DNA of 32,000 bases from Alkalilimnicola ehrlichii MLHE-1 (GCF_000014785.1 NC_008340.1:2040001-2072000), one strand, 5' to 3'; positions 431-15,979 are shown, numbered from the stretch's first letter. The notes: generated from the letters alone by a model not told the origin. Translations and numbers: made by a program.

Positions 431-447
431 GCGCGGCTGGTTATGCA

Positions 448-711
448 TTATTCGTAGTGGCTCCAGAGCCTCAGAACTTTTACCACCCGATCTTCTTCCA
501 ATACTTGGTAGACCAGACGATGCTGAATATTGATGCGGCGCGAATAGGCCCCCGCGAGATCCCCAATGAGTTTCTCGAACGGAGGCGGCTTGCGGTAAGG
601 GTCCTCTGAAATCAGCGCCAACAATTCCTGGGCTTTTGGTTTGAGGCCGCTAGAGGCCAGTTTCTTTGCATCTTTCTGGGCTTGCTTGGTGTAAACCAAC
701 TTCCATGTCAC
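448..711 (-). CDS. yoeB: YoeB/Txe-family type II toxin (mRNA interferase)
   Basis: 87 aa. Typical YoeB sequence (MTWKLVYTKQAQKDAKKL...RRINIQHRLVY...LWSHYE with the C-terminal His-Tyr). 4-nt ATGA overlap with the upstream antitoxin gene. Confidence 0.85.
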   Translation of the reverse strand: MTWKLVYTKQAQKDAKKLASSGLKPKAQELLALISEDPYRKPPPFEKLIGDLAGAYSRRINIQHRLVYQVLEEDRVVKVLRLWSHYE

Positions 712-950
712 CAGTCCATCTCCTCATCGCATTCGTCCACAGGGGTATCCATCCCCTCACGAATAGACTCCCTCATGCCCGGTACGGAGAGCAGATAAAG
801 TGTTTCCTGAATCGCAGACCAGTCTTCCTCGGAAACCAAGACGGCTTTGTTCCGCTTACCCGTGATGACGATTGGTTGGTGGGACTCGGCGGTCTCGTCA
901 ATCAACCGATAAAGGTTGCTGCGCGCCTCAGTTGCTGTGATTCCGGTCAT
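708..950 (-). CDS. yefM: Phd/YefM-family antitoxin
   Basis: 80 aa. The N-terminus (TATEARSNLYRLIDETAESHQPIVITGKRNKAVLVSEEDWSAIQETLYL) is classic YefM/Phd, with an acidic C-terminal tail. Overlaps yoeB by 4 nt. Confidence 0.85.
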   Translation of the reverse strand: MTGITATEARSNLYRLIDETAESHQPIVITGKRNKAVLVSEEDWSAIQETLYLLSVPGMRESIREGMDTPVDECDEEMDW

Positions 951-983
951 GACGCACCTCTTGCGTGTTCAACTTTTCACCAA

Positions 984-1021
984 GTGTACGCCTTTGGGTA
1001 CGTACGTCAAGACGAACGTAC
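984..1021 (-). promoter_or_regulatory. Putative yefM-yoeB promoter/operator with repeated GTAC cores
   Basis: GTAC cores at 986-989, 998-1001, 1002-1005 and 1018-1021, 35-70 nt upstream of the yefM ATG. TGTACG (985-990) and GGTACG (997-1002) are 12 bp apart. On the minus strand TTGACG (1011->1006) could act as a -35. Confidence 0.35.
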
Positions 1022-1237
1022 TGCATAACGCCCGGCCCCCAGCAGGTCAACCAGATCGGTGTGGCCACGGCCCCGCTGCACGTCCGGCACCCAGTGCAGG
1101 TAGCGCATGGTCGAGTGCAGATCCTTATGCCCCTTGCCTTGCTCGATGCGAAGCTGAGAGCGCTCGCCGTCAATGTCCGTGACCCGCACCGCGACCAGCT
1201 CACTGACCCGTAACCCCTTCGCTCTAACGCCAGCCAT
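1007..1237 (-). pseudogene. Remnant of a tyrosine recombinase gene (5'-truncated, internally deleted)
   Basis: The 76-aa ORF contains GLRVSELVAVRVTDIDGERSQLRIEQGKGHKD (box I region) fused directly to LHSTMRYLHW (the C-terminal Tyr region). Most of the catalytic domain is missing. The apparent ATG lies inside attC 1222-1282. Confidence 0.6.
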
Positions 1238-1282
1238 CAGTTGCGCGACGCAAGGAGCGTCAACTGCATGGCATTGTTATAC
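1222..1282 (-). other. Integron attC site (61 bp) closing the type I R-M cassette
   Basis: Plus strand: CTCTAAC-gccaGCCATCAGTTGCGC-gacgcaagga-GCGtCAACTGcATGGCatt-GTTATAC. It is an imperfect palindrome with two unpaired bases on one arm. The minus-strand R'' GTATAAC is the exact complement of the GTTATAC that opens the cassette at 8520-8514. Confidence 0.8.
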
Positions 1283-1303
1283 GCTTTCTGCACCCCAAAA
1301 CGC

Positions 1304-4300
1304 CTATCCGCCGCCGGTGCGCTTTTCCTCACGCACTCGCTTAAAAATCTCCTCGGCAAGGTGCTCATGGGCTGCTGAACGAAACTCCTTGTCGGTCATC
1401 ACACGCGAAAATATGTCTTCGTTGTTTTCCATTCGGTCAATGAACAGTTCATCCAGCATTCGCTCCAGAAATGCGGAGAAGTTTGGCAGGTTGTTTGCCC
1501 TTGCCGCTTCAACGATTTTTTCATTTTCCTCGGCGCTCGCGGTGATCTGATCAAAGAACAGTTGGTCGGCTTCGGTAAAGTCTGTGCCAAAACGTTCGTT
1601 TAGCTTTTCGACCAGTGATGATAGCGGCACGGCTTCCTCCTTCACGCCACTAGTGCCGACATCGGTGGGCCCTTTCAGAGGGTAGGCCTCGCCCGTGCCC
1701 AGGTCGATGGAGCCCTCCGTCATTTGTTGCAGGCGGAAATAGCGCAAGGCCACTTCGTCGTCGAGTGCGAAGGCCTGACCATCGCCAGGAGGGGGAAGCT
1801 TGGAAAGTAAGTTGCGGACGAAGGCGTAAAATTTTTCCAGTTCGCTGTCCTGATACGGAATGATCTGAGATAGAAAAGCGTAGAGATTACGGTAGGCGGT
1901 CAACTGGCCGCGAAACTCTTCTTGCTCCGCTTCCTCCCTGTCACTGAAGCGCGCAACCACCGCATCTAACACTGCATTCATTACCCGGTGGTCGGAAGCA
2001 GAGTGATCCCGTTTGCTCCGATACCATACATCCGCGAAAGCATTGACATCATCGGGCGCAAAGATGGCCCAACCCATAAGTTTGTGTTGCAGCTCGGACA
2101 ACTGGTGCGGATCGGCATTCTCGCCGACAGGTGTAGCCTCGTAGTAGGGCTTGAAGGACTGATAGATATCGTCTTCCTCGTTGGCGAAGTCCAGCACGAA
2201 GGTACGGGCCTTGCCCGGTGCCACACGATTGAGGCGAGACAGGGTCTGCACTGCCTGGACACCGGCCAGGCGTTTGACTACATACATGGTCTGCAGCAGC
2301 GGCTGGTCGAAACCGGTCTGGTATTTCTCCGCGACCAGCAGCACACGGTAATCCTCGCGCTCGAAGGTTTCCGGCAGCTCGCTTTCCGCCAGACCGTCAT
2401 TCATCGCGACCTCGGTGTAAGCGGAACCGGGGTCGTCTGGATCTTCAACGCTACCGGAGAAAGCGACCAGCGAGCGTATGCCGCCATAGCCGTTGTCCTT
2501 GATATAGCGGTCAAAGGCCAATTTGTATTTCACCGCAGCCAGCCGCGATCCAGTCACTACCATGGCTTTGGCACGCCCGCCCATTTCGCTCATCACATAC
2601 AACCGGAAGTGCTCGACGATCACCGAGACCACCTGCTCGATATTGACCGGGTGCAATTCCAGGTAGCGGCTCAGGGCCTTGGCGGCTTTCTTGCGCGGTA
2701 CTTCCGGGTCGTTCTCAACCTGCTTGATCAGGCCGAAGAAGCGCTTGTAGGTGGTGTAGTTCTGCAGCACGTCCATGATGAAGCCTTCTTCGATGGCCTG
2801 ACGCATGGAGTATTCGTGAAACGGAGAGCTGCCGGAGGGGCCCGGTTCATCGAAAAGGGCCTTGGTCTTGAATTTCGGCGTGGCGGTAAAGGCAAAGAAA
2901 CTAAGGTTTGGTTGCCGTGCCCGCTTCAGCGAATCGCGAAGAATAGCGGCCTTGGCTTCATCCGACAGCGCATCGTCTTCCTCATCCGACAACTGGGCGG
3001 CTATGGCCGCCTCGATGCCATCCTTGTTCAGCATGCCCCGCAATTCAGAAGCTGTCTCGCCGCTCTGGGAGGAATGCGCCTCGTCCACAATCACAGCAAA
3101 ACGCTTGCCGGCGGTGCTGATTTTCACCCCTGTGCCCTTTTTCTCCAGCGTAGAAAGGGCCTGGGAAATGAAGGGGAATTTCTGCAAGGTGGTGATAATG
3201 ATCGGCGTGCCGCCGGACAGGGCCTGAGCCAATTGCTGGGTGTTCTCGTCGATCTTCTCCACCACCCCGGTCTTGTGCTCGAACTGGTAGATGGTGTTCT
3301 GCAACTGCTGGTCCAGCACGCGCCGGTCAGTGACCACCACCACCGAGTGGAACACCTTCTGATCCTCGGCATCGTGCAGGCTGGCCAGCCGGTGCGCCAG
3401 CCAGGCGATGGAATTGGACTTGCCGGAACCGGCCGAGTGCTGGACCAGATAATTGTGCCCCGAGCCATTGGCCCGTGCATGGACCACCAGCCTGCGCACC
3501 GCGTCGAGCTGGTGATAGCGGGGGAAGATCATGGTTTCCTTGCGGATGGTGCGCACGCCCTTGTCGGTCTTGACCTGCCGCTCCTTCACCTCCAGGTGCA
3601 TGAAGCGTTGCAGGATGTCCATCAGGCTGTCCTTCTCCAGCACCTCATCCCACAGGTAGTGGGTCTTCCAGTTGTTCTCCACTGGTGGATTGCCTGCGCC
3701 ATGATCATGCCCGCGGTTGAAGGGCAGAAAGACGGTATCCTTGCCCTTCAGGCGCGTGGTCATCCATGCCTCGTCCGGGTCCACGGCAAAATGCACCAAG
3801 GCGCGCTTTTTGAACGCAAACAACAGGTCGCGTTCATCGCGGTCCTGCTTGTATTGCTTGACCGCATCTGCCGCCCGCTGGCCGGTGAGCGAGTTTTTCA
3901 ATTCTGCGGTGACCACCGGCAGGCCGTTCAAGCTCAGAGTGACATCGATAATGCAGCGGCGGTTTTTGGTTGATTTTGGACCATCGGCCTTCTTCATCAC
4001 CGAAGTAAAAGCCACCTGCCGGGTGACCGTTAGCCGGTTCAGTGCGTAGGCGGCCGCCGCCTCCGGGTTCATGCCGGAATTGGGCCGGAAATGCGCCAGC
4101 CGGAAGGTCTTGCCGTAACATTTGAAGCCGTAGCGCAGCACATGCAGGGTGCCCTTGATCTCCAACTCCTTGGCCAGGCTGTGCAGCACCGTGGCGCGAG
4201 TCTTTTCGCCCAGCAAGGCTTCCAGTTGGCCCCACTTGGCCGCTTGGCTGTCCTGCAAAAAACCGGTGACATCCTCTGGGAATATCGCCAACGCCTCGTC

Positions 4301-4393
4301 GTAGGCTGAGGCATTGCGTTTCTCATAGCCGCCCGCACTGGTCAGGCTGGCTTCTATGGCGGTTTCAAAAGCGAGTTCGGAGTGGCCAGCCAT
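1304..4393 (-). CDS. hsdR: Type I restriction enzyme R subunit (helicase/endonuclease)
   Basis: 1029 aa. Walker A (SAGSGKSNS), DEAH box (VIVDEAHSSQSG) and SF2 helicase layout. Last gene of an hsdM-hsdS-orf-hsdR operon. Confidence 0.9.
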   Translation of the reverse strand: MAGHSELAFETAIEASLTSAGGYEKRNASAYDEALAIFPEDVTGFLQDSQAAKWGQLEALLGEKTRATVLHSLAKELEIKGTLHVLRYGFKCYGKTFRLAHFRPNSGMNPEAAAAYALNRLTVTRQVAFTSVMKKADGPKSTKNRRCIIDVTLSLNGLPVVTAELKNSLTGQRAADAVKQYKQDRDERDLLFAFKKRALVHFAVDPDEAWMTTRLKGKDTVFLPFNRGHDHGAGNPPVENNWKTHYLWDEVLEKDSLMDILQRFMHLEVKERQVKTDKGVRTIRKETMIFPRYHQLDAVRRLVVHARANGSGHNYLVQHSAGSGKSNSIAWLAHRLASLHDAEDQKVFHSVVVVTDRRVLDQQLQNTIYQFEHKTGVVEKIDENTQQLAQALSGGTPIIITTLQKFPFISQALSTLEKKGTGVKISTAGKRFAVIVDEAHSSQSGETASELRGMLNKDGIEAAIAAQLSDEEDDALSDEAKAAILRDSLKRARQPNLSFFAFTATPKFKTKALFDEPGPSGSSPFHEYSMRQAIEEGFIMDVLQNYTTYKRFFGLIKQVENDPEVPRKKAAKALSRYLELHPVNIEQVVSVIVEHFRLYVMSEMGGRAKAMVVTGSRLAAVKYKLAFDRYIKDNGYGGIRSLVAFSGSVEDPDDPGSAYTEVAMNDGLAESELPETFEREDYRVLLVAEKYQTGFDQPLLQTMYVVKRLAGVQAVQTLSRLNRVAPGKARTFVLDFANEEDDIYQSFKPYYEATPVGENADPHQLSELQHKLMGWAIFAPDDVNAFADVWYRSKRDHSASDHRVMNAVLDAVVARFSDREEAEQEEFRGQLTAYRNLYAFLSQIIPYQDSELEKFYAFVRNLLSKLPPPGDGQAFALDDEVALRYFRLQQMTEGSIDLGTGEAYPLKGPTDVGTSGVKEEAVPLSSLVEKLNERFGTDFTEADQLFFDQITASAEENEKIVEAARANNLPNFSAFLERMLDELFIDRMENNEDIFSRVMTDKEFRSAAHEHLAEEIFKRVREEKRTGGG

Positions 4394-4396
4394 GGA

Positions 4397-5008
4397 TCAA
4401 ATCTCCTGTATCGAGGTGTTCTGCAACTCGGCCAGCGCCTGGCCGTGCACCTCGTCAAAATGGTAATAGCGTATGGATGGATCAGCGCGGAGTTGCCGAT
4501 TGGGTTCCAGATAGGCGTCTGGGTTGTCATTCTCGGCAAAGACGAATTTGCGAAGATGAATTCGGCGCTTGTCACCGGTGTAATGCTCGATGGTGCGCTT
4601 GAGGCTGTGGACCCAACAGGCACCCGCCCTGAGCTGAGGGACAATCTTTTCAGCAGTCAAACTCTTGGATTTGAACTCGATACAGTCCGCGTAAAACCTT
4701 TGGCCGTTCACATAGAAAATAACGAAGTCGCAGCGCTTTGACCAAGGCTTAGCTGTATCGTCTAGAAAGTGGAAAAGAGGCGGTTTACTCTTTTTCCGCT
4801 GCAACTCAACCTGATCATGGTCCAACTTGAAAGCCAATCCCGGCCCCGGCAAAAGAAGCTGTATTTTCCTTGTTTTCGCGCGGGTCCCTGTTGGAGGAAA
4901 ATACTTTTCTTTCAGGATGACTTCACCTCCCACGCCATCATGCATCACATATCGACTATTTACATAGGCCTTCAGGTGCTCGAAATAGGTGGAGGCTGCC
5001 AACGTCAT
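4397..5008 (-). CDS. Hypothetical protein with a PD-(D/E)xK-like motif, embedded in the type I R-M operon
   Basis: 203 aa. Its start overlaps the hsdS stop (ATGA at 5005-5008) and its stop is 3 nt from the hsdR start. ...KRCD94FVIFYVNGQRFYADCIE111FK113SKS... fits D-x(n)-ExK on consecutive beta-strand-like segments (codons about 4670-4729). No family recognised. Confidence 0.55.
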   Translation of the reverse strand: MTLAASTYFEHLKAYVNSRYVMHDGVGGEVILKEKYFPPTGTRAKTRKIQLLLPGPGLAFKLDHDQVELQRKKSKPPLFHFLDDTAKPWSKRCDFVIFYVNGQRFYADCIEFKSKSLTAEKIVPQLRAGACWVHSLKRTIEHYTGDKRRIHLRKFVFAENDNPDAYLEPNRQLRADPSIRYYHFDEVHGQALAELQNTSIQEI

Positions 5009-6264
5009 TGCAGACCTCCGATTTGGCCAGTGACGGCAGCGGTAATTAGTGCAGAGCGATATTCTTCTAGCTTCTGGACACTACGCTTTACTTCATCTGC
5101 AGCGAAGCGATTCTCTCGATCTACACGTGAACAATAGTCGGCAATCTCAGTTTGCTCATCTAGAAAGGGAATTGGTAACACAAACGCACCAAGCGCTTCT
5201 CGATTTACTTTAGGCATCGCAACGCGAAGTGACTCAAGCTCGGCATAAGCCGTAAACGCATCAGTTAGAAGAAAATAAAATAAGTACCGACGTTCAAAAT
5301 ACTTCCCGGGGTCAATAGCGTACATATCTGCACTGCAAAGACACACTGAATCAAATAACGCAACCTTTCTGAGTGCAGGGCGAATCTTTGAGTATAGAAC
5401 AGAGCCCTCAGAGCAGAAGTATTTCCCGCTAATTGCTCCCTGTTCCTCGGCACTAGGGACATCGTATAGTCGTCCAGTACCGCTTTCTATATAGTCGGGA
5501 GCAATTAAAGGCATATCTGTATACTCAGGCTCGCGAGGATCGACTTGCCCACTTTGTACTTGGCATCTCCATTTGAATGGAACCAGATCCCAATGCGCAG
5601 GAATATCACCCAGCCAGTCGATGCCGGAGGGTTTCATGGGGGCTTCGGGGTTAAGGCCCTTGGTGACGGCGCGGGTGATCAGGGCCTGGCGCTTTTCCGC
5701 CAGCCGGTCCAACAGGGCGCGCTTTTTCTCGATCAGGCCATCGATGCGGGCGGTCTTCTCATCCAGAAACTGCGCGATGCGGCGCTGGGTTTCGAGGGGT
5801 GGGAGCGGCATTTCGATAGTGACCAGCTCACTAGCGTTAATCGCCGGATAGCTGACCCCGACCGAGCGCGAAACAACCTCCGATACAAACGGCTCAGATT
5901 TCGCGGCCCAACCGAGGTATCCACTATCGACTTCTTCCCTGTCTGGTCGAACAACACAAAAACCTGTCGAAGCAATCAGGTCTGGCGAAGCTTCGTCAAC
6001 CTTGGCAATGGCCCTGAGGTAAGTCCGAACTGTAGAAATCAATATGTCGCCGCTTCGCACTTTACGACGAGCACGAGAGGGAGCCTTCCCGAAAGTAATA
6101 CGCTCTACCTGCTCAACTCCACGAGATAGGGAAACACCTGAGATCTCAACGTAGTCGATCTCGGCCTCTTCATCAGTGCTTTCTGGTAAGACCTCATCAT
6201 TATAGGTAGCTAGGTATTTGAGGCGCTTGCTTGACCATGTCGCTGGAAGTGTTACGTCAATCAT
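5005..6264 (-). CDS. hsdS: Type I R-M specificity subunit
   Basis: 419 aa. Two target-recognition-domain-like halves are separated by a conserved coiled-coil spacer (PPLETQRRIAQFLDEKTARIDGLIEKKRALLDRLAEKRQALITRAVTKGL). The C-terminal repeat of the same type is KLEEYRSALITAAVTGQI. Overlaps hsdM by 4 nt. Confidence 0.9.
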   Translation of the reverse strand: MIDVTLPATWSSKRLKYLATYNDEVLPESTDEEAEIDYVEISGVSLSRGVEQVERITFGKAPSRARRKVRSGDILISTVRTYLRAIAKVDEASPDLIASTGFCVVRPDREEVDSGYLGWAAKSEPFVSEVVSRSVGVSYPAINASELVTIEMPLPPLETQRRIAQFLDEKTARIDGLIEKKRALLDRLAEKRQALITRAVTKGLNPEAPMKPSGIDWLGDIPAHWDLVPFKWRCQVQSGQVDPREPEYTDMPLIAPDYIESGTGRLYDVPSAEEQGAISGKYFCSEGSVLYSKIRPALRKVALFDSVCLCSADMYAIDPGKYFERRYLFYFLLTDAFTAYAELESLRVAMPKVNREALGAFVLPIPFLDEQTEIADYCSRVDRENRFAADEVKRSVQKLEEYRSALITAAVTGQIGGLQ

Positions 6265-8438
6265 CCCACCAATCCCCTTAAAAGCCCGGCAATTTCCCCT
6301 TCCAGTTCGGTAATCTCCTGCTCGATCTCGTCCAGCGGACGCGGTGGCTTGTAGACGTAGAAATGCCGGTTGATCGGGATTTCATAACCCACCTTGGTCT
6401 TGCTGTAGTCCACCCAGGCATCATCCACATGGGGCAGCACCTCGCGGGCCATGTAGGCGTCGATCTCGGCCCGGAAGGCGGTCACCAGCTTGTCATTGGG
6501 TTTGTCCGGGCCGAACTGCATTGGCAGGGGCAGTTGGGTGCCCTCGGGCAAGGGGATGTTCTCGGTGTCGCGCAGTTCGCTGTCAGGCTCCGGTCTGCCC
6601 TTGCTGTCGCGGCAAATTTCGGCATCGGGGTCGCGCTCGCCCAGAGCGTTGAAGATGGCCTTTTTGATCGGTACCGGGAGTTTGAGGCTAGCCACCTTGG
6701 CAGCGGCGTTCAGATCCGCTTCGAAAACGGCGCGGTCGGTGTACTGCCCCTTGGGTGCTAGGCTCGCCAACAGAGCGCGAATCGCCTCCTGCTGCTTTTG
6801 CCCTTCCGCGATCTCCTTGGCAGCCGCAGCCTCATTCTTGCGTTTTTTCGAGGTGGCCAGGTTGGCAAAGGCGGTCTGCTCATCCAGCCGGGCAATGCGC
6901 TCCGGCGAAGCTTCGAAGTTCATGCGCAGGGGGCGCTCCACCGTCACCTTGAGAAAGCCGAACTCGCGGTTCTCGAAAATGCGGGAGACCACACGGGTTT
7001 CGGTGTCGCCGTTGATTCTTACCTCGGCGGTTTCACCGTCCCGGTTGTTACCGTAGAGTCGGGTCAGATCGCGGATCTGGTCTTCGGTGACCTCGTTACG
7101 CTTGTTGTTGAGGCTTTTCTTCATGCGCTGGAAAAAGCGTGTGCCGTCGATTAGTTGCACCTTGCCGCGCCGCTCCGGGGCCTTGCGGTTGGTCACCAGC
7201 CAGACATAGGTGAAAATACCGGTGTTGTAGAAAAGCTGGTCGGGCAGCGCGACGATGGCATCGAGCCAGTCGTTTTCGATAATCCAGCGGCGGATATTCG
7301 ACGGCCCGGAACCGGCATCACCGGAAAATAGCGGCGAGCCATTGAAGACGATGGCGATCTTGGAACCGACGGAGTCGTCATCCCCCTCTTTGTAGGGGTG
7401 CATCTTGGCGATCATGTGCTGCAGGAACAGCAGGGAGCCGTCATTGATGGCGGGCAGGCCGGCGCCGAATCGTCCGGCAAAGCCCATCTCCTTGTGTTCT
7501 TTCTCGACGACGGTTTTCTGGTCTTTCCACTCCACACCAAAGGGCGGATTAGCCAGCAGGTAGTGAAACTGCTTGCCCTCGAAGCCGTCGCGGGTCTTGC
7601 CGTCGCCCAGGGTATCGCCCAGCACGATGCTGCTGGTGTCTTCATCCTTGATCAGCATGTCCGAACAGCAGATGGCCCAGGACTCGTCGTTGTACTCCTG
7701 ACCGAACAGCGCCAAGTTAGCCTGACTGTTCTGGTCGAGGATGAATTTCTCCGATTCCGACAGCATGCCGCCCGTACCGCAGGCCGGGTCGTAAATAGTG
7801 CGGTAGATGCCCGGCGTGTAAACATCCTGTTCGCCGGTGTAGACCAGATTGGCCATCAGGCGGATGACTTCGCGCGGGGTGAAGTGGTCCCCGGCCTCTT
7901 CGTTGGCCTGCTCATTGAAGCGCATCACCAGATGCTCGAACAGGTAGCCCATTTGCAGGTTGTCGATGCGGTCCGGGTGCAGGTCCACTTCTGACATCGC
8001 CTTGACGATGGTAAACAGCCGGTTGCTGGCGTCGAGTTTTTCGATCTGGTCAGTGAATTTAAAACGCTCGAAGATGGCCCGAGCCGTAGGCGAGAAACCG
8101 TTGATATAGGCGACAAGGTTAGGCGCAATGTTCTCCGAATCCCCCAACAATTTCTCGAAGATGAACGGACTGGTGTTGTAGAGAGGGTGGGTTCGGTCAG
8201 GATCGGCCGCCTTGCCCAACAGCTTCTCCATGGCATTTTCCGGCATACCTTGAGCGGACAGCTTTTCGTATTGCTTCAGCACCGCTTCTTTGGTGGGCTC
8301 CAGCACACAATCCAGTCGCCGCAGCACGACCATAGGCAGCATGACCAAGCGGTACTGAGGGGGGCGGTAAGGGCCGCGAAGGCGGTTGGCGATTTCCCAG
8401 ATGTGGCTTTTGAGCTGGTCGTGCAACTGCAAGTTCAT
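6261..8438 (-). CDS. hsdM: Type I R-M N6-adenine DNA methyltransferase subunit (long form, 725 aa)
   Basis: HsdM N-terminal region, AdoMet motif (DPACGTGGML) and catalytic NPPFG (LLANPPFGVEW). A long C-terminal extension is present. AAGGA lies upstream of the ATG. Confidence 0.9.
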   Translation of the reverse strand: MNLQLHDQLKSHIWEIANRLRGPYRPPQYRLVMLPMVVLRRLDCVLEPTKEAVLKQYEKLSAQGMPENAMEKLLGKAADPDRTHPLYNTSPFIFEKLLGDSENIAPNLVAYINGFSPTARAIFERFKFTDQIEKLDASNRLFTIVKAMSEVDLHPDRIDNLQMGYLFEHLVMRFNEQANEEAGDHFTPREVIRLMANLVYTGEQDVYTPGIYRTIYDPACGTGGMLSESEKFILDQNSQANLALFGQEYNDESWAICCSDMLIKDEDTSSIVLGDTLGDGKTRDGFEGKQFHYLLANPPFGVEWKDQKTVVEKEHKEMGFAGRFGAGLPAINDGSLLFLQHMIAKMHPYKEGDDDSVGSKIAIVFNGSPLFSGDAGSGPSNIRRWIIENDWLDAIVALPDQLFYNTGIFTYVWLVTNRKAPERRGKVQLIDGTRFFQRMKKSLNNKRNEVTEDQIRDLTRLYGNNRDGETAEVRINGDTETRVVSRIFENREFGFLKVTVERPLRMNFEASPERIARLDEQTAFANLATSKKRKNEAAAAKEIAEGQKQQEAIRALLASLAPKGQYTDRAVFEADLNAAAKVASLKLPVPIKKAIFNALGERDPDAEICRDSKGRPEPDSELRDTENIPLPEGTQLPLPMQFGPDKPNDKLVTAFRAEIDAYMAREVLPHVDDAWVDYSKTKVGYEIPINRHFYVYKPPRPLDEIEQEITELEGEIAGLLRGLVG

Positions 8439-8513: not shown

Positions 8514-8603
8514 GTATAACGCAAAGGTAACCGGCGCCGGAGCGCCAGCGGGGGGAACCAAAAGCGGAACGCTTTTGGCGTCCGGTTGACCGCTTGGTTA
8601 GAG
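8514..8603 (-). other. Integron attC site (90 bp) closing the DUF867 cassette
   Basis: Plus strand: GTATAAC-gcaaaGGTAACCGGCGCC...GGCGtCCGGTTgACCgcttg-GTTAGAG. T and G are unpaired on the arm next to GTTAGAG. A perfect 9-bp inner hairpin (CCAAAAGCG-gaa-CGCTTTTGG) is present. The ORF stop codon (8598-8600) lies inside the R'' box. Confidence 0.85.
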
Positions 8604-9212
8604 CAGGCCTGCACGAATCAGCCCCTGACGAACGGCATCGACAAATTTATAGAACACGTCAGTCTGGCGTGCTCTTCCAGCTTTATTGAGAGACTCAAAG
8701 AGAGTGCTTCTCAAGCCGCGGGAGAGCTCTAATTGAACACCAGCTCCGCTCGTTCCGCGATTACAGATATTCGCTCGTGATGTCCCTTGAAGATTCGGGT
8801 TTTCATGCTTGCGCACGGTAAAACCGGCCTCTGCAAGTGCTTCGCTTATTTGAGAGCGCAGCAGCGCATCGGCACCGCCAGCAAATACCGTTTCCCCTGG
8901 GCTGTTTTCACCATGTATTGCTACAGCAGTGCGAGACCGCGCGACTACTTCGACACAACGAGGTTCATCGAAATTCGTACTGGTTATATGCAAGTCCCGG
9001 TTCTTGGCTACCTTAGTACCCTCAAAAATTGCGAAACTAAACTGCTCGCCTGCAATAGCAAAGGCCAACTCTGATGTGCCTGGCTCAATTGCACCACCAT
9101 GCGGGGCAATCACAGCTACCGCTGCTTCGTCTCGCACCGCCACCTGAACGCGAAAATCGCGCCCTTCAGTTTGCTCAGCTTTAAGTGCTTTAAAATTTGA
9201 GTATCTGTCCAT
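8598..9212 (-). CDS. Poly-gamma-glutamate hydrolase family (DUF867 / PghP-like) protein
   Basis: About 204 aa. APHGGAIEPGTSE and ...AVAIHGE... match the remembered HGG-IE-GT and downstream His zinc-ligand pattern of the family. The ATG at 9212 is preferred over the TTG at 9215. Confidence 0.65.
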   Translation of the reverse strand: MDRYSNFKALKAEQTEGRDFRVQVAVRDEAAVAVIAPHGGAIEPGTSELAFAIAGEQFSFAIFEGTKVAKNRDLHITSTNFDEPRCVEVVARSRTAVAIHGENSPGETVFAGGADALLRSQISEALAEAGFTVRKHENPNLQGTSRANICNRGTSGAGVQLELSRGLRSTLFESLNKAGRARQTDVFYKFVDAVRQGLIRAGLL

Positions 9213-9219
9213 CAATTCG

Positions 9220-9288
9220 CTCTAACGCTCAACTAAGCCGCTGGGCGGAGCGTAGCGTAGCCCAGTCGGCTTGAGTGTTATGTTAGCG
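9220..9288 (-). other. Integron attC site (69 bp) closing the membrane-protein cassette
   Basis: Plus strand: CTCTAAC-GCTCAActaAGCCGcTGGG-cggagcgtagcgtag-CCCAgtCGGCTTGAGt-gttat-GTTAGCG. The minus-strand R'' CGCTAAC is the exact complement of GTTAGCG at the cassette start (10209-10203). A tandem partial box GTTAT/GTTAGCG leaves the exact R'' register ambiguous. Confidence 0.75.
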
Positions 9289-10188
9289 ATTCGACATAAC
9301 ACGATAGAACTCTCTCACTGCACTTGCGAACGCGGAGCGTTCCCTAAGCAGTCGCACATACGTCGGCAGATTAAATCCGATAACGGGAGAGAGCAGATTG
9401 CCACGAATGCTGCCGGCCAGCATGGATATTGGCCCGCTCAACTTCTCCGCACAGTCAATAAATTGTTGGCATTCCTGTACGTTCACTTGATTATGGAACT
9501 CTTGGATGTAATTGGGATTATTCACATCGACTATTGGTACATGAATCCACATCTTTCTCCCGATCTCCTCAAGAGCCTGCACTGCCTCATCAAAGGCATC
9601 CGGCATTCCCCAGCCCGAACATAGTATTGTGTAGTTCCTTCCCTTTATTCGATGAACTTGTACCGTGGCCTGCGACAGTTGCTCTCTCGCTGATAGGAAT
9701 TCTCTAGTCTGGCTCAGGGCCCAGTCCACCTTAAATTTTGCCTCACGAGCGTTACTCCCTCTTTGGACCTCATTCACCGCTTCAACGAGGGACTCTACGA
9801 AGAGCTGCGCATCAGTTACAAGTTGGTTGGTTGTTCCAAAAAAATGCTCGATTTCGCCCGCTGTCTGGGTTCTAAGCTGCGCCTGTTGCTGCTGCTTCCA
9901 GCTCACGGTTGCCGTATGAAATGCCACCACAAAGCCACCAAGAGTTACCGCTGCGGTGGCAAGTCCTACTTTGTAAGCCTCCGGCTGTCCGTTGAACCAC
10001 AATACCAACTCGCCAGGGGAAAATGGCTCTACACCGAGCACAGTCTCCGCCCCTACGTATAGTGATATCGCCAGCGCTAGTGCACCCAATGCAGTGCCGA
10101 AAAGAAAGTGCACCAACATCCCAATCGAAATGAACGCGTAGAACGCTGGAACGGCCACTTGAGGTGGAATGCGCTGGAATATCTTCAT
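9283..10188 (-). CDS. Hypothetical membrane protein (2-3 N-terminal TM helices plus a helical soluble domain)
   Basis: The ORF track gives 9283-10266. I prefer the ATG at 10188 (MKIFQRIPPQ...), which is preceded by GGGAG. The hydrophobic stretches are AVPAFYAFISIGMLVHFLFGTALGALALAISLYVGA and VGLATAAVTLGGFVVAFHTATV. No family recognised. Confidence 0.55.
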   Translation of the reverse strand: MKIFQRIPPQVAVPAFYAFISIGMLVHFLFGTALGALALAISLYVGAETVLGVEPFSPGELVLWFNGQPEAYKVGLATAAVTLGGFVVAFHTATVSWKQQQQAQLRTQTAGEIEHFFGTTNQLVTDAQLFVESLVEAVNEVQRGSNAREAKFKVDWALSQTREFLSAREQLSQATVQVHRIKGRNYTILCSGWGMPDAFDEAVQALEEIGRKMWIHVPIVDVNNPNYIQEFHNQVNVQECQQFIDCAEKLSGPISMLAGSIRGNLLSPVIGFNLPTYVRLLRERSAFASAVREFYRVMSNR

Positions 10189-10202
10189 ACGTCTCCCAGA
10201 CT

Positions 10203-10274
10203 CGCTAACGCCGCGCTCTGCGGCAAATTTGGAGCGCAGCGGAGAATTTGTCCGACAGCAGCGCATTGTTAGGG
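10203..10274 (-). other. Integron attC site (72 bp) closing the CHAT-like cassette
   Basis: Plus strand: CGCTAAC-gccGCGCTCTGCGGCAAATT-tggagcgcagcggag-AATTTGtCCGaCAGcAGCGCatt-GTTAGGG. It forms a long imperfect stem with unpaired bases on the arm next to GTTAGGG. The minus-strand R'' CCCTAAC is the exact complement of GTTAGGG at the cassette start (11148-11142). Confidence 0.85.
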
Positions 10275-10277
10275 ATT

Positions 10278-11126
10278 TTACGTGGCAACAATATCATCCT
10301 TAGATAAAGGGAAGCGCGCATCATTTTCTGGAAAATCAGCAATGAAGAAGAACCTTTTTCTGAGTTTATCAAAGTGCTGATCTTCAGATGCAAGACCTTT
10401 CTTTACTTGCTGTCTGGCCCATGCCACACCACGTCTCTTTACGTCGGGGTTTTTCATCGCCTCAGAAACAAGGCGTTCTACCCTTTCTTTCTTCCCTTTC
10501 CCGACACAGTGACTTTTATAGTAGGCTCGGTAAGCCCTTGAAAATAGTCCAGCAGCGCTTAAAAAATGATAGGTTCGATCTTGATGCTCTGCCCCTTCAT
10601 TAAGGATACCTATGGCTTTATCACCATCGAGGTCGAAAAAGAAGGACTCATAAAACCGACCGAAATTATCCTGAATATGCCCAGCAGTTACTTCTACCTC
10701 CGGACCAATTATTGCCCAGAAAGGAGCCGCATCTAGCCTTGTAGATGCTTTTATTAAATGGGCACCATTGCAGGCAGCAATTACAATCATCAGATTTAGC
10801 TTAGTCGCTCGGTTAATCTCAATAAGTATCTCTCTGATTTCATCCCATTCAACCAGTTCTCCGCTAGCGGTTCCCAAGCCGTCTTCACACCCATGACACT
10901 CAAAGTGGATCATTGGATATATTCCGCTCAAAGCCTCATTTCGTATTTTTTCTAATACGTCAAACAGCTCGGACTTAGTTATTGGCTCAGCGAATTCGAC
11001 GACAAGGTCTTGCTGTACCTGCTTAGCCTTGTCCAGCTGATTGTCGAAGAGATTTTTCCCGGTTCTAAGCTCACCTGATGGTAAAGATTCTATAACCCAC
11101 AGCTTATTGAAAATATTTCCGGACAT
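10278..11126 (-). CDS. Putative clan-CD (caspase/CHAT-like) cysteine peptidase, single-gene cassette
   Basis: 282 aa. A hydrophobic strand followed by His-Gly (PMIHFEC-H78-G) and, 41 residues later, a hydrophobic strand followed by Cys (LMIVIAA-C119-NGA). This is the order and context of the caspase-hemoglobinase-fold catalytic dyad. H78 codon 10893-10895; C119 codon 10770-10772. Motif-level call only. Confidence 0.5.
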   Translation of the reverse strand: MSGNIFNKLWVIESLPSGELRTGKNLFDNQLDKAKQVQQDLVVEFAEPITKSELFDVLEKIRNEALSGIYPMIHFECHGCEDGLGTASGELVEWDEIREILIEINRATKLNLMIVIAACNGAHLIKASTRLDAAPFWAIIGPEVEVTAGHIQDNFGRFYESFFFDLDGDKAIGILNEGAEHQDRTYHFLSAAGLFSRAYRAYYKSHCVGKGKKERVERLVSEAMKNPDVKRRGVAWARQQVKKGLASEDQHFDKLRKRFFFIADFPENDARFPLSKDDIVAT

Positions 11127-11141
11127 GACGATTCCATTTAT

Positions 11142-11217
11142 CCCTAACGCGCAGCGTAACCGGTCGGATTTGGAGCGTCAGCGGAAAAGCCGATCCGTGT
11201 TGACGCTGTTGTTGTGC
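11142..11217 (-). other. Integron attC site (76 bp) closing the DUF262-HEPN cassette
   Basis: Plus strand: CCCTAAC-gcgCAGCGTAACCGGTCGG-atttggagcgtcagcggaaaag-CCGAtCCGtGTTgACGCTGtt-GTTGTGC. The 16-nt arm pairs perfectly once T, T and G on the other arm are flipped out. The minus-strand R'' GCACAAC is the exact complement of GTTGTGC at the cassette start (13051-13045). Confidence 0.85.
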
Positions 11218-11260
11218 TAAGCTGACGGATCGAATTCGTCTCGCCGCCACTCCTTATCCA

Positions 11261-11893
11261 TTACTCTGCACAATTCATAATATTATTTTGGAAACAATCC
11301 GATAAAACCAGAAGCATCCTTTGCGTAAACGTGACGTGCTCCCTGATATCTATCGTCGACAAATCCGGGTCATCGCCATGCGCAATACTATGGCGCCACC
11401 TCACAAGCTCGTTGTCTATTTTAAGGCGCCACCGCAAGAATGGAGAGCAATCGAACCCCATGACTTCGAAGTTGTCTTTTAACTTTCTGAAATCTAGATT
11501 TGATCTAGAAGAAACCACTTCCTTATCAAAATTCAAAAAGTCCCCTCTTGTCACTTCCTGAAATCGCAAGATAAACTCTACTGCTGCAAGCTGAGAATGA
11601 TTTCTATCTCTGAGCCTTTGAAAATCAGACTGGAGCAACCCAATCAGCATTGGCCAAGAGACATCTGAAACCTTCTTTCTAGCCTCCCTCAAAAAATCTA
11701 TGTAAAGAGATACGCAATCGTTATAAAACCCTTCCCAGTGAGAATAGGATAAAACGATAACTGCCTTCGACTGGACCCCAAATTGCGCAATAGAGCCTAG
11801 CTCATTCATTCGGACTTTTATCTCTGACAGTTCCTTGGCTCGGCGCAAGCGGATCGAATCCAAGTCTGAGAGAAATTGAAAAACATCGCTCAT
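11261..11893 (-). CDS. HEPN-domain protein (MAE_28990/MAE_18760-like), predicted RNase effector
   Basis: About 210 aa. Rx4H motif W-R-H-S-I-A-H-G (codons 11378-11395) near the C-terminus, plus the upstream YSHWEGF element typical of this HEPN family. The ATG at 11893 overlaps the DUF262 TGA (ATGA). The ORF track starts at 11908. Confidence 0.7.
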   Translation of the reverse strand: MSDVFQFLSDLDSIRLRRAKELSEIKVRMNELGSIAQFGVQSKAVIVLSYSHWEGFYNDCVSLYIDFLREARKKVSDVSWPMLIGLLQSDFQRLRDRNHSQLAAVEFILRFQEVTRGDFLNFDKEVVSSRSNLDFRKLKDNFEVMGFDCSPFLRWRLKIDNELVRWRHSIAHGDDPDLSTIDIREHVTFTQRMLLVLSDCFQNNIMNCAE

Positions 11894-12999
11894 TGTGGAG
11901 AAAACCAATTCTCACCAAATGGTACGGTTCTTTGGATCCGAGTAGTCCCTCGCAAGCCTGACGCACTCAACTCGGCGACATCTCTTTCTCGCCAGAACCG
12001 ATCGACGCGCTCACGCAAAAAACCATCCGGGTCTTCCAAGTCCTGAATTTTTTCTTTGTTTCTGGCGACCCCTACCAATATCGCTTCCAGTGCACGCAGA
12101 GAAAATCTTTTGGCTATTCCTTGATAAGCCTCGTCATGAGGAATCAAGGCATCGCCCCCGAATAAGCTATGCAAGCTATTGACGGCCCATTCCACCGTAT
12201 GGATCACATCATTCGGATCTTGATCCACGATAATTCGCGCAATACTTCGGTCGAGGAACTCCTGAACATCAGCATCTGAGCCAAAATCTTCGACTGTATG
12301 AACAATAGCACGAACCGCATATTCAACATCTTTTTGTTTTAAATTCTGCTCTTCCGTAATTTTAAAAATATTTATAAATTCTTCGCTTCTTGCCAGATTC
12401 CTTATTCGAGCGGTAGCATCTGCATTTCCAAGCACCATTGAACAAGTGCGGACTTCCTGCTCATTAGCGTACTCGCCACCCCGATTCAATCGCTGAAACA
12501 AATCAAATTTCGTTTTTGCGTCACTTGGGTGTTTAAGTATCTGGAAATCCAAGCGTGACCGACGAAAGAAAAGCTGAAGAGATTTTTCAAGAACTTGAGC
12601 ACCTCCATCTCCTCCTTCTGTTGGCCACACGACACCATCTAAGGACGGAAGATAGGTTGCAGTTGTCAGAGTAGAAGGCGGCATCTTCTCTGCAGGATTA
12701 TCTGGTTCGCGCAAAACGCCCATGAACTCGAGCACTGTGGAGATACGTTGTAACCCGTCTATCAGCTCCCATGTTCCATCTGGCTTTTCATATGCGAAAG
12801 CCGGGGGCACAGGGATTCCAATCAAAATCGATTCGATAAAAGCCGTCTTCTTTTCAGGAGACCAACGAAATAATCTCTGAAAATCAGGGATAATATCTAG
12901 CTCCTCCGCCGCATACATGGAAGCGATCTCCCCAATGGAGATTTGCAAACTATCGGTAACAACTGATCGCTTTGCGGTTTCTAGTTCATTTCTTAACAT
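11890..12999 (-). CDS. DUF262 (ParB/Srx-fold, GmrSD-N-like) protein lacking a DUF1524/HNH nuclease domain
   Basis: DFQRLFRW, IDGLQR and FQRLNRGG motifs match the DUF262 signature (QR..W, DGQQR, LN.GG). The ATG at 12999 is preceded by GAGGG at 7-nt spacing. The ORF could extend to 13017. Confidence 0.75.
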   Translation of the reverse strand: MLRNELETAKRSVVTDSLQISIGEIASMYAAEELDIIPDFQRLFRWSPEKKTAFIESILIGIPVPPAFAYEKPDGTWELIDGLQRISTVLEFMGVLREPDNPAEKMPPSTLTTATYLPSLDGVVWPTEGGDGGAQVLEKSLQLFFRRSRLDFQILKHPSDAKTKFDLFQRLNRGGEYANEQEVRTCSMVLGNADATARIRNLARSEEFINIFKITEEQNLKQKDVEYAVRAIVHTVEDFGSDADVQEFLDRSIARIIVDQDPNDVIHTVEWAVNSLHSLFGGDALIPHDEAYQGIAKRFSLRALEAILVGVARNKEKIQDLEDPDGFLRERVDRFWRERDVAELSASGLRGTTRIQRTVPFGENWFSPQ

Positions 13000-13044
13000 T
13001 AAGCAGCCCTCAAGCATGGAGAATCATAAGCAGAAATTTCATCT

Positions 13045-13063
13045 GCACAACGCCTAGTTAACC
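13045..13063 (-). other. attI-like simple site at the head of the cassette array
   Basis: Minus strand: GGTTAAC-taggc-G|TTGTGC. The GTTGTGC core is cognate to the R'' of the first cassette's attC. A related 19-bp site (plus strand GTTCAAC-gcctt-GTTGCAC) lies at 13140-13158. Overlaps the last codons of the IS91 tnpA ORF. Confidence 0.5.
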
Positions 13064-14343
13064 GGCCCGCATCGAGGCAAATAAAAATGCCGATCGCCCT
13101 CATTCACCTCGGACCTCCTCGAAGGCACTAGCGGGTCCGGTTCAACGCCTTGTTGCACACTGCCCGAAGCCTTCGGAGGCGACCCACTTCTTATTAGGGA
13201 ATTTTGAATCCGGTGGCGACTCGGGGGAAGCGTGAATCCCCGGATCAGCTCGGCACCGCAAGCGGGACAGCACAGGGCGTCGCTATGGCCAAGCATCTCC
13301 AGGTACGCCTGCCAGGTCTGCTTCTTCGGCTCCACTTCGGGCATAGGCGCCCCCATTTGTTCTCGGCAAGCCATTCGCTTGGCACGGCAGGTGTGGGCAT
13401 ACAGACCAACGTGGCGGACGGTGTGCTGACCCGGCTCCGGGACATGCCACAGGATCTGTTCCATGAATCGCTCCACCGCCACACGCCGCAGTTTCCGTCG
13501 ACCATCCCGGTGGTCATGGTAACGGAATTGAACCTGGCCTTCCCCCAACGACTTGATCCGGGTGTTTGTGATGGGTCCGCCGCGCACGTAGCGAGACAGG
13601 TACGCAGCGACTCCTCGTCCATGTGTATAGCGGCCCTGCAAACGGACATTCCATTCTTTCTTCGCAGTGGCCTTGAGCCAGTAATCCACGGTCGGATGAT
13701 CGCCACGGGGCGCTTTCAGTCGGCCAGTATCCAGATCATGGCGCAGACGGGAGAGTAGTTTGCCCCGGAACACGCGCTTCACCACGGCCGCAGGCAGCAG
13801 AAAGTCACCCTTCACCGCTCGCCACTGTCCACCCGTCGTCAATCCACCCCCACTGATCAAGCAGTGAACATGGGGGTGGGCGTTAAGGGTTCGACCCCAC
13901 GTGTGCAGGGCCATCACAATGCCGGGGACCGCCCCTAGGTGACGATCTTGCGCAAGCAGTTGGATGAGGGTGTCCCGACTGGCATCGAATAGCGCGGCCA
14001 CGAAGGACCGGCGGTTGTACCGCCACAGGGGGATCAATTCATGGGGCACGGTAAAGATAGCGTGGAAATGATCGCAAGGCAGCAGGCGGCCTCGTTCACG
14101 CTCCATCCACTGTGCCTTGGCACGCTCCGCACATTGCGGGCAGCTACGATGCCGGCACGAGTGGTACTGCACGCGGCGGTGGTGGCCATGGGGACAACAC
14201 TGCTCGTGGCCCCCCAGCGCTTCCGTCCGGCAATTCATAATCGATTCTGCCGCTTTGAGCTGCGGGAGCGGAAAACAATGATGTTTACGAAGCCCATCAA
14301 AATGCTCCAGAAATACGTCCTGAATGGTCGGCTTCCTTGCCAT
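13054..14343 (-). CDS. tnpA: IS91-family (HUH, Y2) rolling-circle transposase; element ends not defined
   Basis: 429 aa. N-terminal Cys/His zinc-binding region (CCPHGHHRRVQYHSCRHRSCPQC), HUH motif (HPHVHCLISGGG), YxxxY pair (YLSRY) and C-terminal CPACG. The last approximately 55 aa look non-conserved and run over the attI-like sites. Confidence 0.85.
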   Translation of the reverse strand: MARKPTIQDVFLEHFDGLRKHHCFPLPQLKAAESIMNCRTEALGGHEQCCPHGHHRRVQYHSCRHRSCPQCAERAKAQWMERERGRLLPCDHFHAIFTVPHELIPLWRYNRRSFVAALFDASRDTLIQLLAQDRHLGAVPGIVMALHTWGRTLNAHPHVHCLISGGGLTTGGQWRAVKGDFLLPAAVVKRVFRGKLLSRLRHDLDTGRLKAPRGDHPTVDYWLKATAKKEWNVRLQGRYTHGRGVAAYLSRYVRGGPITNTRIKSLGEGQVQFRYHDHRDGRRKLRRVAVERFMEQILWHVPEPGQHTVRHVGLYAHTCRAKRMACREQMGAPMPEVEPKKQTWQAYLEMLGHSDALCCPACGAELIRGFTLPPSRHRIQNSLIRSGSPPKASGSVQQGVEPDPLVPSRRSEVNEGDRHFYLPRCGPVN

Positions 14344-14590
14344 TGATTGAGCCTCCTGTACGGCGCTCCATGCCGTATATTACAGACATTGCAACGCGGC
14401 ATGTCTTCGCCAACTAACTGAAAAATCGCAACATCTGCCGCGAAGCGGCTTTGTGCAACAGTTGATTCTACTGCGTCTGTAGAGGCGGTGATATGCAGAC
14501 GCCGCATGTCACACCCGGGATACTTGATATCGAACCAGTCGGTGGCGCATGCTTATCGTGCATAGTCATGGACTGACGGAGTAAGGAATC

Positions 14591-15979
14591 ATGGTTGATC
14601 CAAGCCGCAAAGATGCCCGTGCCCGGTTCTGGGATCGTTACATCCAGGCTCTCCGAAAGCAAGGCGTGAAGCCACCCTTCGACCGATGGCACGTACGTCG
14701 GGCGGAGGAGTTCATCAAGGCGCACCCTGATCAAAGGCTTCGCGAGTTGGGCCCTGATGGCGTGCAAAGCTACCTGCGACGGAAGGGACACGCCGGTAAT
14801 CTCAAGGCCTGGCAGTTCCAGCAAGTGGTTCGTGCTATACAGACGCTGTATAGCACGGCTAACATAGCATGGGCTGCGAGGTTCGACTGGCAGTATTGGA
14901 TGGATGCCGCCCGAACGCTCGAGCCTGAACACGTTTCTACGGCCCGGGACACCCCAGCGCCAACTCCGGTACGGCTTGCCGAACGTGTTGCTGACACTCG
15001 TCTGGCACACGTGGTACACGCGCACCCCGCGCTTTTTGAGGCTTTTTCTGAAACAGTCACCAGCAGAGGCTTGGCGATCAGCACCGAGAAAACCTACCTG
15101 GCGTGGACCTGCCGGTTCATTGTGTTTCTGCAGTCGAAGCCTGTGGAAAGCGCGGACGAGGCGGATGTTCAACAATTTCTCAGTCAGTTGGTCACACAGC
15201 GCAATGTAGCCGCCAGCACCCAGAGCCAGGCTCTGAACGCTTTGGTCTTCTTCTTCCGGTACGTTCTGCAGCGACCGCTTGGCGAACTCCAGGCTATTGA
15301 GAGGTCAAAACGGCCCAGGCGCCTTCCTGTGGTTCTCTCTCGCAATGAGGTCAAGGCGCTGTTGAGTGAAATGCACGGTGTTCACCATTTGCTGGCCTCA
15401 TTGCTTTATGGTTCCGGCATGCGGGTCATGGAAGCACTACGATTGCGCGTCAAAGATATAGATTTCGAGCGGCGGGCAATCACGGTGAGATCCGGCAAAG
15501 GCGATAAGGATCGCGTGGTACCCCTTCCCGAATCCACGATAGCGCCGCTCCAGAACCACTTGCGGCAGGTGAAGGCCATTCACGAGGGAGACCTGGCCGA
15601 TGGGTACGGTGAAGCCTCCCTCCCCCATGCCCTGGCCCGGAAGTACCGCAATGCCGGGAAGGAATGGCATTGGCAGTATGTGTTTCCCAGTGCCCGGGTA
15701 GCGGTCGATCCCCGATCAGGGGCGATCCGTCGACATCATCTTCATGAAACCGCTGTCCAGCGTGCGGTAAAACGGGCGGTGAGAGCCTCCAGAATACCGA
15801 AACAGGCCAGTTGCCACACCTTGCGGCACAGTTTTGCCACGCACCTGCTGGAGCGCGGCCAGGATATCCGAACCGTGCAAGAGCTCCTGGGCCACGCGGA
15901 TGTATCGACGACCATGATCTACACGCATGTAATGAGCAAAGGTGGCGTCCCTGCGGCGAGCCCGTTGGACGGGCTTTAG
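14591..15979 (+). CDS. intI: Integron integrase (IntI-type tyrosine recombinase) with an approximately 130-aa N-terminal extension
   Basis: 462 aa. It aligns by eye with IntI1 across the N-terminal SAM-like domain, box I ([27 protein letters not shown]), the IntI-specific insertion ([21 protein letters not shown]...RRHHLHE), [28 protein letters not shown] and the tail GG..ASPLDGL. AAGGA lies 4 nt upstream of the ATG. Confidence 0.85.

Follow-up and report, generated by a model that had tools for sequence, protein, structure and literature searches.

A chromosomal integron of Alkalilimnicola ehrlichii MLHE-1 with a 7.3-kb cassette encoding a predicted type I restriction-modification system

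The superintegron of Vibrio cholerae is an array of about 180 cassettes at a fixed chromosomal location, with toxin-antitoxin and defence genes in or beside the array, and Vibrio cassettes are mostly shorter than 1 kb. We analyzed 32,000 nucleotides of DNA from Alkalilimnicola ehrlichii MLHE-1 (GCF_000014785.1, NC_008340.1:2040001-2072000), hereafter called the window, with positions counted from its first nucleotide. We are very confident that positions 440-15979 hold an intact chromosomal integron, consisting of an integrase gene (intI), an attachment site (attI) and six co-oriented minus-strand cassettes (c0 to c5), each ended by an attC site. The locus shares with the V. cholerae superintegron its fixed chromosomal location, the presence of toxin-antitoxin and candidate defence genes, what may be a placement of attC bottom strands in the template of the leading strand, and an integrase core 45% identical to the V. 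cholerae enzyme VchIntIA in a Foldseek alignment, including the integron-specific insertion and all catalytic residues. It differs in having six cassettes, of which one measures 7.3 kb, attC sites that are less uniform than the V. cholerae repeats, and an integrase with an N-terminal extra domain of ~145 residues. The integron is an ordinary example of a well-known kind and adds one more chromosomal case, from a haloalkaliphilic gammaproteobacterium, to a well-understood class; its one unusual feature is the 7.3-kb cassette, which carries a four-gene restriction-modification (R-M) system.

Defence cassettes in chromosomal integrons were already published in 2024-25. In the survey of Darracq et al. 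(2024, bioRxiv 10.1101/2024.07.02.601686), defence systems in sedentary-integron cassettes "never exceed 2 components", long loci are absent, the R-M systems are mostly of types II and IV, and the cassettes are described as "streamlined". The window resembles these arrays in its restriction-type and HEPN/nuclease-type candidates and in its toxin-antitoxin genes, whereas cassette c5 has three components plus an accessory open reading frame (ORF) in 7.3 kb. The "largest known cassettes" in the literature are of about 2 kb, and cassette lengths up to ~3 kb only were tested by Loot et al. (PMC5371416). Excision of a ~3-kb cassette is already impaired when the leading-strand template carries the bottom strands, the arrangement found in 25 of 30 sedentary integrons.

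In the 3.26-Mb chromosome CP183314.1, the integron is bordered by an asmA-family gene on one side and by mfd on the other. Counted from attI, the cassettes encode an IS91-family transposase (c0, 1408 bp), a GmrSD_N and HEPN protein pair (c1, 1903 bp), two proteins of unknown function (c2, 939 bp; c3, 983 bp), a poly-gamma-glutamate (gamma-PGA) hydrolase-like protein (c4, 706 bp) and a type I R-M operon (c5, 7292 bp). The minus-strand orientation described for the ORFs at 448-13017 in an earlier reading of the DNA (hereafter the sequence-only reading) was borne out, and extends to 14343 for the family-supported ORFs. That reading took the whole of 440-15979 as a complete integron, and none of the three outcomes it had named as refuting this was obtained. 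Its intI and cassettes stand, while 440-1227 is a degenerate remnant and a toxin-antitoxin pair with no recognisable attC, and the word "complete" applies solely in the sense of IntegronFinder, that is, intI plus at least one attC.

Integrase, attI and cassette boundaries

The gene intI (14591-15979, plus strand) is intact and encodes an integron integrase of 462 residues. The protein scored 448.2 bits against TIGR02249 (cutoff 265), whereas the XerC and XerD models gave 169 bits, under their cutoffs of 335 and 330, and the class 1 integrase model NF011946 gave 308 bits, under its cutoff of 435. The best solved relative is VchIntIA (PDB 2a3v; 281 bits over residues 154-460), and the IntI-specific insertion already recognized in the sequence-only reading aligned with VchIntIA residues ~196-260, as did the catalytic R, K, HxxR, H and Y motifs with their counterparts. 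The AlphaFold model likewise retrieved 2a3v as the top Foldseek match (E 1.7e-21), with XerA behind at ~5e-12.

The integrase is of a long form, with a conserved N-terminal extension of ~145 residues (residues 1-147, window 14591-15031) in which F13, W14, W33, W74, Q75, Q78, A82, L86 and W103 are invariant. The extension was predicted as a confident four-helix domain (predicted local distance difference test values of the block mostly 82-93), and comparison with the canonical SAM-like domain gave an hhalign probability of 67% (E 5e-5) and a Pfam E-value of 0.025. Judged from the structural model, it looks like a second SAM-like four-helix domain. Used as the sole homology query, the N-terminal 147 residues returned close relatives only, and the full-length protein was therefore used to search for the long-form family, which comprises at least 120 clusters at 50-85% identity with full coverage and has many Gammaproteobacteria among its members. 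Longer IntI proteins, with ~120 extra residues, have been described as "clade 15" from Deltaproteobacteria, where they were put down to one shared "gene fusion" and suspected of being functional (Nemergut et al. 2008, PMC2426708). The IntI of the window is also longer than usual; the fused part was left unnamed in that paper, whereas here it is an apparent second SAM-like domain.

The position of attI was located by comparison with two relatives, A. ehrlichii CP184336.1 (L171) and an Aquisalimonas metagenome-assembled genome (L011). L171 shares 96-97% DNA identity with the window from 14457 through intI, mfd, csiV, a kinase gene, a regulator gene and lysS, including more than 9 kb of flank. 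Through intI and the spacer, the identity is 96.8% to L171 and 76.6% to L011; the homology ends at 14457, and all three sequences diverge directly after the GTT of attI. Because the homology to both relatives stops at this G/TT (the slash marks the crossover), 14459 is assigned to attI and c0 is the first cassette. The boundary at 13051, with which the sequence-only reading began its list of cassettes, is not the attI junction but that between c0 and c1. The region 14457-14590 (minus strand), between intI and the first cassette, thus probably functions as attI, with the crossover at 14459/14458 within ...GAATCAACTG/TT.

Beyond the crossover, the two relatives carry different cassettes from the window, in line with the cassette variation that the sequence-only reading had made a test of its claim. 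L171 has five attC sites with entirely different genes and has no cassette in common with the window. L011 has none in common either, and its cassettes obey the matching rule described below (GTTATAA...TTATAAC, GTTAGGC...GCCTAAC). As intI adjoins mfd in the window, L171 and L011, this comparison of sequences shows an integron fixed at one chromosomal site while its cassettes turn over. The integron of L171 has the same site, next to the same series of genes, the same attI up to G/TT and attC sites of the same type; it differs in having five attC sites, an interrupted intI, no IS91-family cassette and no R-M operon. Together, the window and L171 give a very clean natural case in which the whole set of cassettes has been replaced at an attI crossover of known position. 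In L171, intI (10001-12655) is broken by an insertion sequence (IS) and gives a 301-residue product, and in L011 the gene (4881-6040) encodes an IntI 84% identical to that of the window but is frameshifted and truncated. The clean cassette replacement makes the strain pair convenient for studying the long-form integrase, which is intact in the window and inactivated in both relatives.

According to established integron biology, the plus strand (bottom strand) of each attC would fold into an imperfect hairpin with extrahelical bases, which IntI would recombine with attI or another attC by cleavage between G and TT. Each cassette would in this way begin, at its 5' end, with the six terminal bases of the R' box that belongs to it. 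The sequence-only reading claimed that every cassette opens with the reverse complement of its own distal box, and this proved correct throughout: between the opening GTTNNNN and the distal R'' box of the same cassette, the variable bases agree at 24 of 24 positions across the six cassettes. The match is perfect cassette by cassette because the last six R' bases would travel with the cassette. In the control comparison of R'' with R' of the same attC, 13 of 24 positions agree, non-cognate pairs of opening and R'' mostly agree at 0-3 of 4 positions, and the only one of the 720 possible pairings that attains the observed total is the true order. All ten coordinates and 7-mers quoted for five cassettes (openings with G at 13051, 11148, 10209, 9226 and 8520; R'' at 11217, 10274, 9288, 8603 and 1282) are exact on the minus strand, and most of these 7-mers occur once on that strand of the window. 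A sixth matched unit is formed by 14459 G/TTGCAC ... GTGCAAC at 13158. The palindrome ends had been described as RYYYAAC/GTTRRRY; the looser form NNNNAAC/GTTNNNN holds, whereas the strict consensus fails for GCACAAC and CCCTAAC. A regular expression for the strict form misses sites, and several R'' boxes deviate from it.

A crude covariance model (R1), with a hand-set structure, was made from the arms of all six window attC sites after trimming, and was used solely to harvest foreign sites. At E <= 0.12, R1 recovered only four of the window's own six sites. Run on 80 loci of other genomes that hold IntI homologues, it gave 36 hits, and 35 of these had the strand and the side that an integron would predict. 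Only these 36 foreign sites went into a second model (R2). In the window, R2 identified exactly six sites, all on the minus strand and with ends identical to the manual ones, at 44.6-52.9 bits, the next hit being at 12 bits; the five sites listed in the sequence-only reading are all among them. Across 82 IntI-homologue loci, R2 gave 107 sites at E <= 0.01; the strand was as expected for 106 of them and the side for 105. In a clinical class 1 integron, it also recovered the attC sites of aacA4, blaIMP-6 and aadA2. Less was gained from other approaches: Rfam at the gathering threshold gave no match anywhere in the window, an initial scan with ungapped arms was strand-symmetric as well as too strict, and a MAFFT alignment of the full attC sites yielded no usable consensus structure, its place being taken by the trimmed-arm seeds.

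The six sites on the minus strand are attC0 (13045-13158, 114 nt; 51.2 bits, E 2.6e-9), attC1 (11142-11217, 76 nt; 44.6 bits), attC2 (10203-10274, 72 nt; 49.1 bits), attC3 (9220-9288, 69 nt; 47.4 bits), attC4 (8514-8603, 90 nt; 49.1 bits) and attC5 (1222-1282, 61 nt; 52.9 bits, E 1.1e-9), which is the last recognisable attC. Folded as single-stranded DNA, a check proposed in the sequence-only reading, they gave six imperfect hairpins, with z-scores of -2.2, -2.6, -2.0, -4.2, -3.4 and -2.6, respectively. In all six, one base bulges out at top-strand position 16; in most, an A at 23 or 24 forms a second bulge, on the same arm throughout (attC0 at 16 and 23; attC1 at 16, 20 and 24). The class 1 attC sites of aadA2 and aacA4 have bulge geometry and spacing identical to those of the window. 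In addition, attC1 to attC5 have a central loop motif in common (CGCTCC on the top strand, GGAGCG on the plus strand; e.g., 11170-11185 and 10228-10242), a family resemblance typical of sedentary arrays. The attC0 site of the IS91-family cassette is without this motif, which suggests that it has a different origin from attC1 to attC5.

The 7.3-kb restriction-modification cassette

Cassette c5 (1228-8519, minus strand) contains hsdM (6261-8438), hsdS (5005-6264), an ORF of 203 residues (4397-5008) and hsdR (1304-4393). The hsd genes were assigned from Pfam matches to N6_Mtase/HsdM_N, Methylase_S and HSDR_N/ResIII/T1R_D3, and PADLOC identified MTase_I (893.6 bits), Specificity_I and REase_I. The predicted products make up a full type I R-M system of HsdM, HsdS with two target-recognition domains, and HsdR, which would be expected to act in defence. 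The cassette opening TTATAC matches R'' GTATAAC at 1282 perfectly, each 7-mer being unique on the strand, and R2 with filters off detected no attC between 1283 and 8513. The operon fills the unit tightly, with a leader of 82 bp, 21 bp from the hsdR stop codon to attC5 and no remnant of another gene. Excision of c5 would be expected to release a circle of 7,292 bp, closed at ...GGCTGGCG/TTATACGC...; in size c5 is an outlier, which pipelines run at default settings would leave unconnected to the array.

The 203-residue ORF in the hsdS/hsdR interval shows weak PADLOC matches only (PD-T4-4_B, 7e-8, and PDC-M47B) and no DNA homology to the closest R-M relatives, whose sequence differs at this place. 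In a more distant operon on metagenome contig L105, an ORF of 334 residues is found elsewhere, between hsdM and hsdS. The hsdS/hsdR interval is perhaps a place where accessory genes vary within this family of type I R-M systems.

It could be argued that the integron is real but that the R-M operon is not a unit mobilized by IntI, having entered a small cassette shell or the space between attC sites by homologous recombination or an unrelated insertion, and being now fixed. The closest relatives of the operon, with HsdM 81-91% identical (L087-L091 and L134), have no flanking attC, and homology to them spans 8457 to 1335, leaving cassette-specific ends of 62 bp and ~50 bp, as would be expected of such a route. 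The published limits of ~2 kb and two components point the same way, as does the impaired excision at ~3 kb in the leading-strand orientation. That orientation is itself deduced for the window: over 16 kb of host flank, the plus strand has a GC (guanine-cytosine) skew of -0.039, which tentatively suggests that the leading-strand template contains the attC bottom strands, and the position of the locus at ~65% of the record agrees with this. Set against this explanation are the perfect TTATAC/GTATAAC match between two unique 7-mers and the tight filling of the unit, and also a second case. On contig L105 (9123-17603), a type I R-M operon with HsdM 63% identical lies between attC-type boundaries ~7.75 kb apart, with GTTATGC at 9853 and an attC that begins 4 bp past the hsdR stop codon and whose R'' agrees in 4 of 4 variable bases. 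The sister contig L107 (304-6436) carries the L105 array (100% and 95.5% identity) with an extra 811-bp cassette exactly between attC sites, and this array displays cassette gain or loss. L105 has no intI within 10 kb, and an ORF of 487 residues upstream of the array was considered as the integrase and rejected, as it is not an IntI. On balance, we regard entry of the operon by another route as rather unlikely, though it deserves to be kept in mind.

The broader proposal, that cassettes can exceed the accepted limit several-fold and carry complete multi-gene type I R-M systems as single IntI-mobilisable units, is a real possibility that we put forward tentatively and stop short of calling probable. 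Together with the L105 case, c5 challenges the assumptions that cassettes are no longer than ~2 kb and that cassette-borne defence has no more than two components. It exposes a blind spot of surveys that use a 4-kb attC clustering distance, and if the proposal is true, the reported "streamlining" of cassette-borne defence would partly be a detection artefact of this default setting. The six-base matching rule offers an annotation-free way to authenticate oversized cassettes.

Setting and type of the array

The integron described above was taken to be a sedentary one, inherited vertically, and it could instead be a mobile integron (a transposon or integrated element) that recently landed in the chromosome. 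The small size of the array would fit this, as would the GC content of 44-60% in the cassettes (the same range holds for region 1-16000) vs 69-70% in the flanks, and the first cassette with its IS91-family transposase, a 40.6%-identical relative of which occurs in a clinical class 1 integron. We nevertheless consider a recent arrival very improbable. The intI-attI pair lies at the same position by mfd in both A. ehrlichii, at 96-97% identity over the >9-kb flank, and the Aquisalimonas genome; the flanks are core genes and no Tn402 or Tn7 transposition genes and no tni genes are present. Furthermore, the integrase scores 308 bits with the class 1 model NF011946, short of the cutoff of 435, and the loop motif common to five of the six attC sites is a trait of sedentary arrays.

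Several observations weigh against an intact chromosomal integron of the sedentary type. A Pc promoter and expression of the cassettes are presumed, yet no sigma-70-type Pc match was detected in 14300-15100, near attI and the 5' part of intI, by a simple and insensitive scan, and no LexA box (CTGT-N8-ACAG, at most one mismatch) was detected near intI. The integron may be recombining at present, yet no excision or insertion event was seen within the strain, the sibling assemblies being identical. R2 is a home-made proxy for the attC model of IntegronFinder, and its seed hits came by way of a window-derived model. With six cassettes only, the array is below the size commonly asked of a sedentary integron (more than ~20 attC), although small chromosomal arrays are known, for example in Xanthomonas with up to 22 cassettes. 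Finally, the distal 800 bp are non-conforming, without attC, and contain a recombinase pseudogene.

The view that the palindromes are ordinary intrinsic terminators or elements resembling repetitive extragenic palindromes, functionally unlinked to a generic Xer-type recombinase, could draw on their position directly past a stop codon and on the lack of a matching Rfam family, but can safely be set aside given that none of the full attC stems is followed by a T-run of the terminator type and that scans for terminators and promoters were at chance level, that the bulge asymmetry is fixed with the same spacing as in class 1 attC sites, that 24 of 24 positions obey the matching rule, that strand and side are associated with intI for 105 of 107 sites across the 82 loci, and that the recombinase scores above the TIGR02249 and below the XerC/XerD cutoffs.

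Remaining cassettes, array-distal end and flanks

Cassette c0 (13051-14458, minus strand) opens with TTGCAC and has GTGCAAC at 13158 as its R''; neither L171 nor L011 has this cassette at the corresponding attI. Its ORF (13054-14343) encodes an IS91-family (Y2 HUH) transposase (NF033538, 382.7 bits; Pfam Y2_Tnp and Zn_Tnp_IS91) and reads into its own attC0. Transposase genes of this family were identified as true cassettes in three unrelated settings, namely the window, a plasmid of Thiolapillus and a clinical class 1 integron carried by an IncN plasmid; the comparison cassettes (L170, 2416-3877; L169, 2418-3737) encode proteins 40-43% identical, each unit obeys the boundary rule, and the ORF reads into its own attC in L169 as in the window. 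A precedent for an IS91-family transposase cassette is known from Shewanella (PMC9229058). No further copies of the IS91 transposase were found outside the window locus. In the class 1 integron of IncN plasmid NZ_AP018758.1 (aacA4 - blaIMP-6 - aadA2 - IS91-family transposase - qacEdelta1/sul1), the transposase likewise forms a cassette, G/TTGAAC ... GTTCAAC, and the attC bulge geometry is the same as in the window. The plasmid differs in carrying a mobile antibiotic-resistance integron, and its transposase is 40.6% identical to that of c0.

Cassette c1 (11148-13050, minus strand) encodes a GmrSD_N/DUF262 protein (11890-13017; Pfam GmrSD_N, 2.4e-19) and a HEPN RiboL-PSP protein (11261-11908; Pfam HEPN_RiboL-PSP, 2.3e-31). 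PADLOC matched the GmrSD_N/DUF262 protein to NsnA (1.5e-47) and PD-T4-2_A (1.5e-29), and c1 is a candidate two-gene defence system. Cassette c2 (10209-11147, minus strand) encodes a protein of 282 residues (10278-11126) with a match to phrog_38219 (3.4e-17) and a weak match to Peptidase_C13 (E 0.018); no Pfam, NCBIfam or PADLOC family was assigned to it. In c3 (9226-10208, minus strand), the longest ORF in the ORF listing (9283-10266, 327 residues) has its ATG at 10266, inside attC2 and upstream of the c3 boundary at 10208, and the gene call in a sibling assembly is of 301 residues with a start inside the cassette. The c3 protein gave no family match in Pfam, NCBIfam, PADLOC and phrog searches. 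Judged from their neighbours, c2 and c3 are candidates for new defence genes. Cassette c4 (8520-9225, minus strand) encodes a poly-gamma-glutamate hydrolase family protein (8598-9215; Pfam Gamma_PGA_hydro, 4.9e-68; phrog_4175).

At the array-distal end, the first 11 nt past the attC5 crossover (GTTAGAGCGAA, with the G at 1228 included) repeat the start of c4 at 9226. This repeat and an internally deleted, intI-like tyrosine-recombinase pseudogene fragment, recognized by sequence reading and a family search, occupy 1007-1227 (minus strand). The fragment is in cassette orientation, shows 50% identity to IntI residues 276-307 and then jumps to the C-terminal Tyr motif; its best family is TIGR02249 at 26 bits, far under the cutoff, and it is too short to classify. 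The stretch 1007-1237 looks like a scar left by rearrangement, and what remains there may come from a duplicated cassette or a second integron. The idea that this recombinase fragment (1007-1237) had served an ISShvi3-type IS91 element as its partner integrase was unsupported, as the two annotated transposase relatives have no adjacent integrase.

Beyond the scar, a Phd/YefM antitoxin (708-950) and a YoeB/Txe toxin (448-711) are encoded on the minus strand (448-950; Pfam; NCBIfam TIGR02116, 91.7 bits), with a promoter-like site at 1010-983 ahead of the pair in the promoter scan. The pair is flanked by GTTATGC (1029) and GCATAAC (446) and was considered as a seventh true cassette. This was rejected, as the upstream stretch has a fold z-score of +0.42 and R2 finds nothing at either end; neither folding nor R2 detected an attC upstream of 1029. 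The unit is possibly a remnant. The array region ends at a short hairpin overlapping the stop codon of the convergent asmA-family gene.

This host gene, of which the 3' end lies at 2-430 (plus strand; GC 0.70), forms the left chromosomal flank and was assigned from the Pfam AsmA match (1.5e-24) of a longer copy in L084. The right flank is mfd (16294-19794, plus strand), encoding the transcription-repair coupling factor, assigned from gene calls and Pfam on L081; it adjoins intI in relatives, being the same neighbour in L171 and present as fragments in L011. Further downstream, BLAST self-matches revealed a direct repeat of ~80-100 bp (82-86% identity, offset ~86 bp) at ~22570-22760, between the response-regulator gene and lysS.

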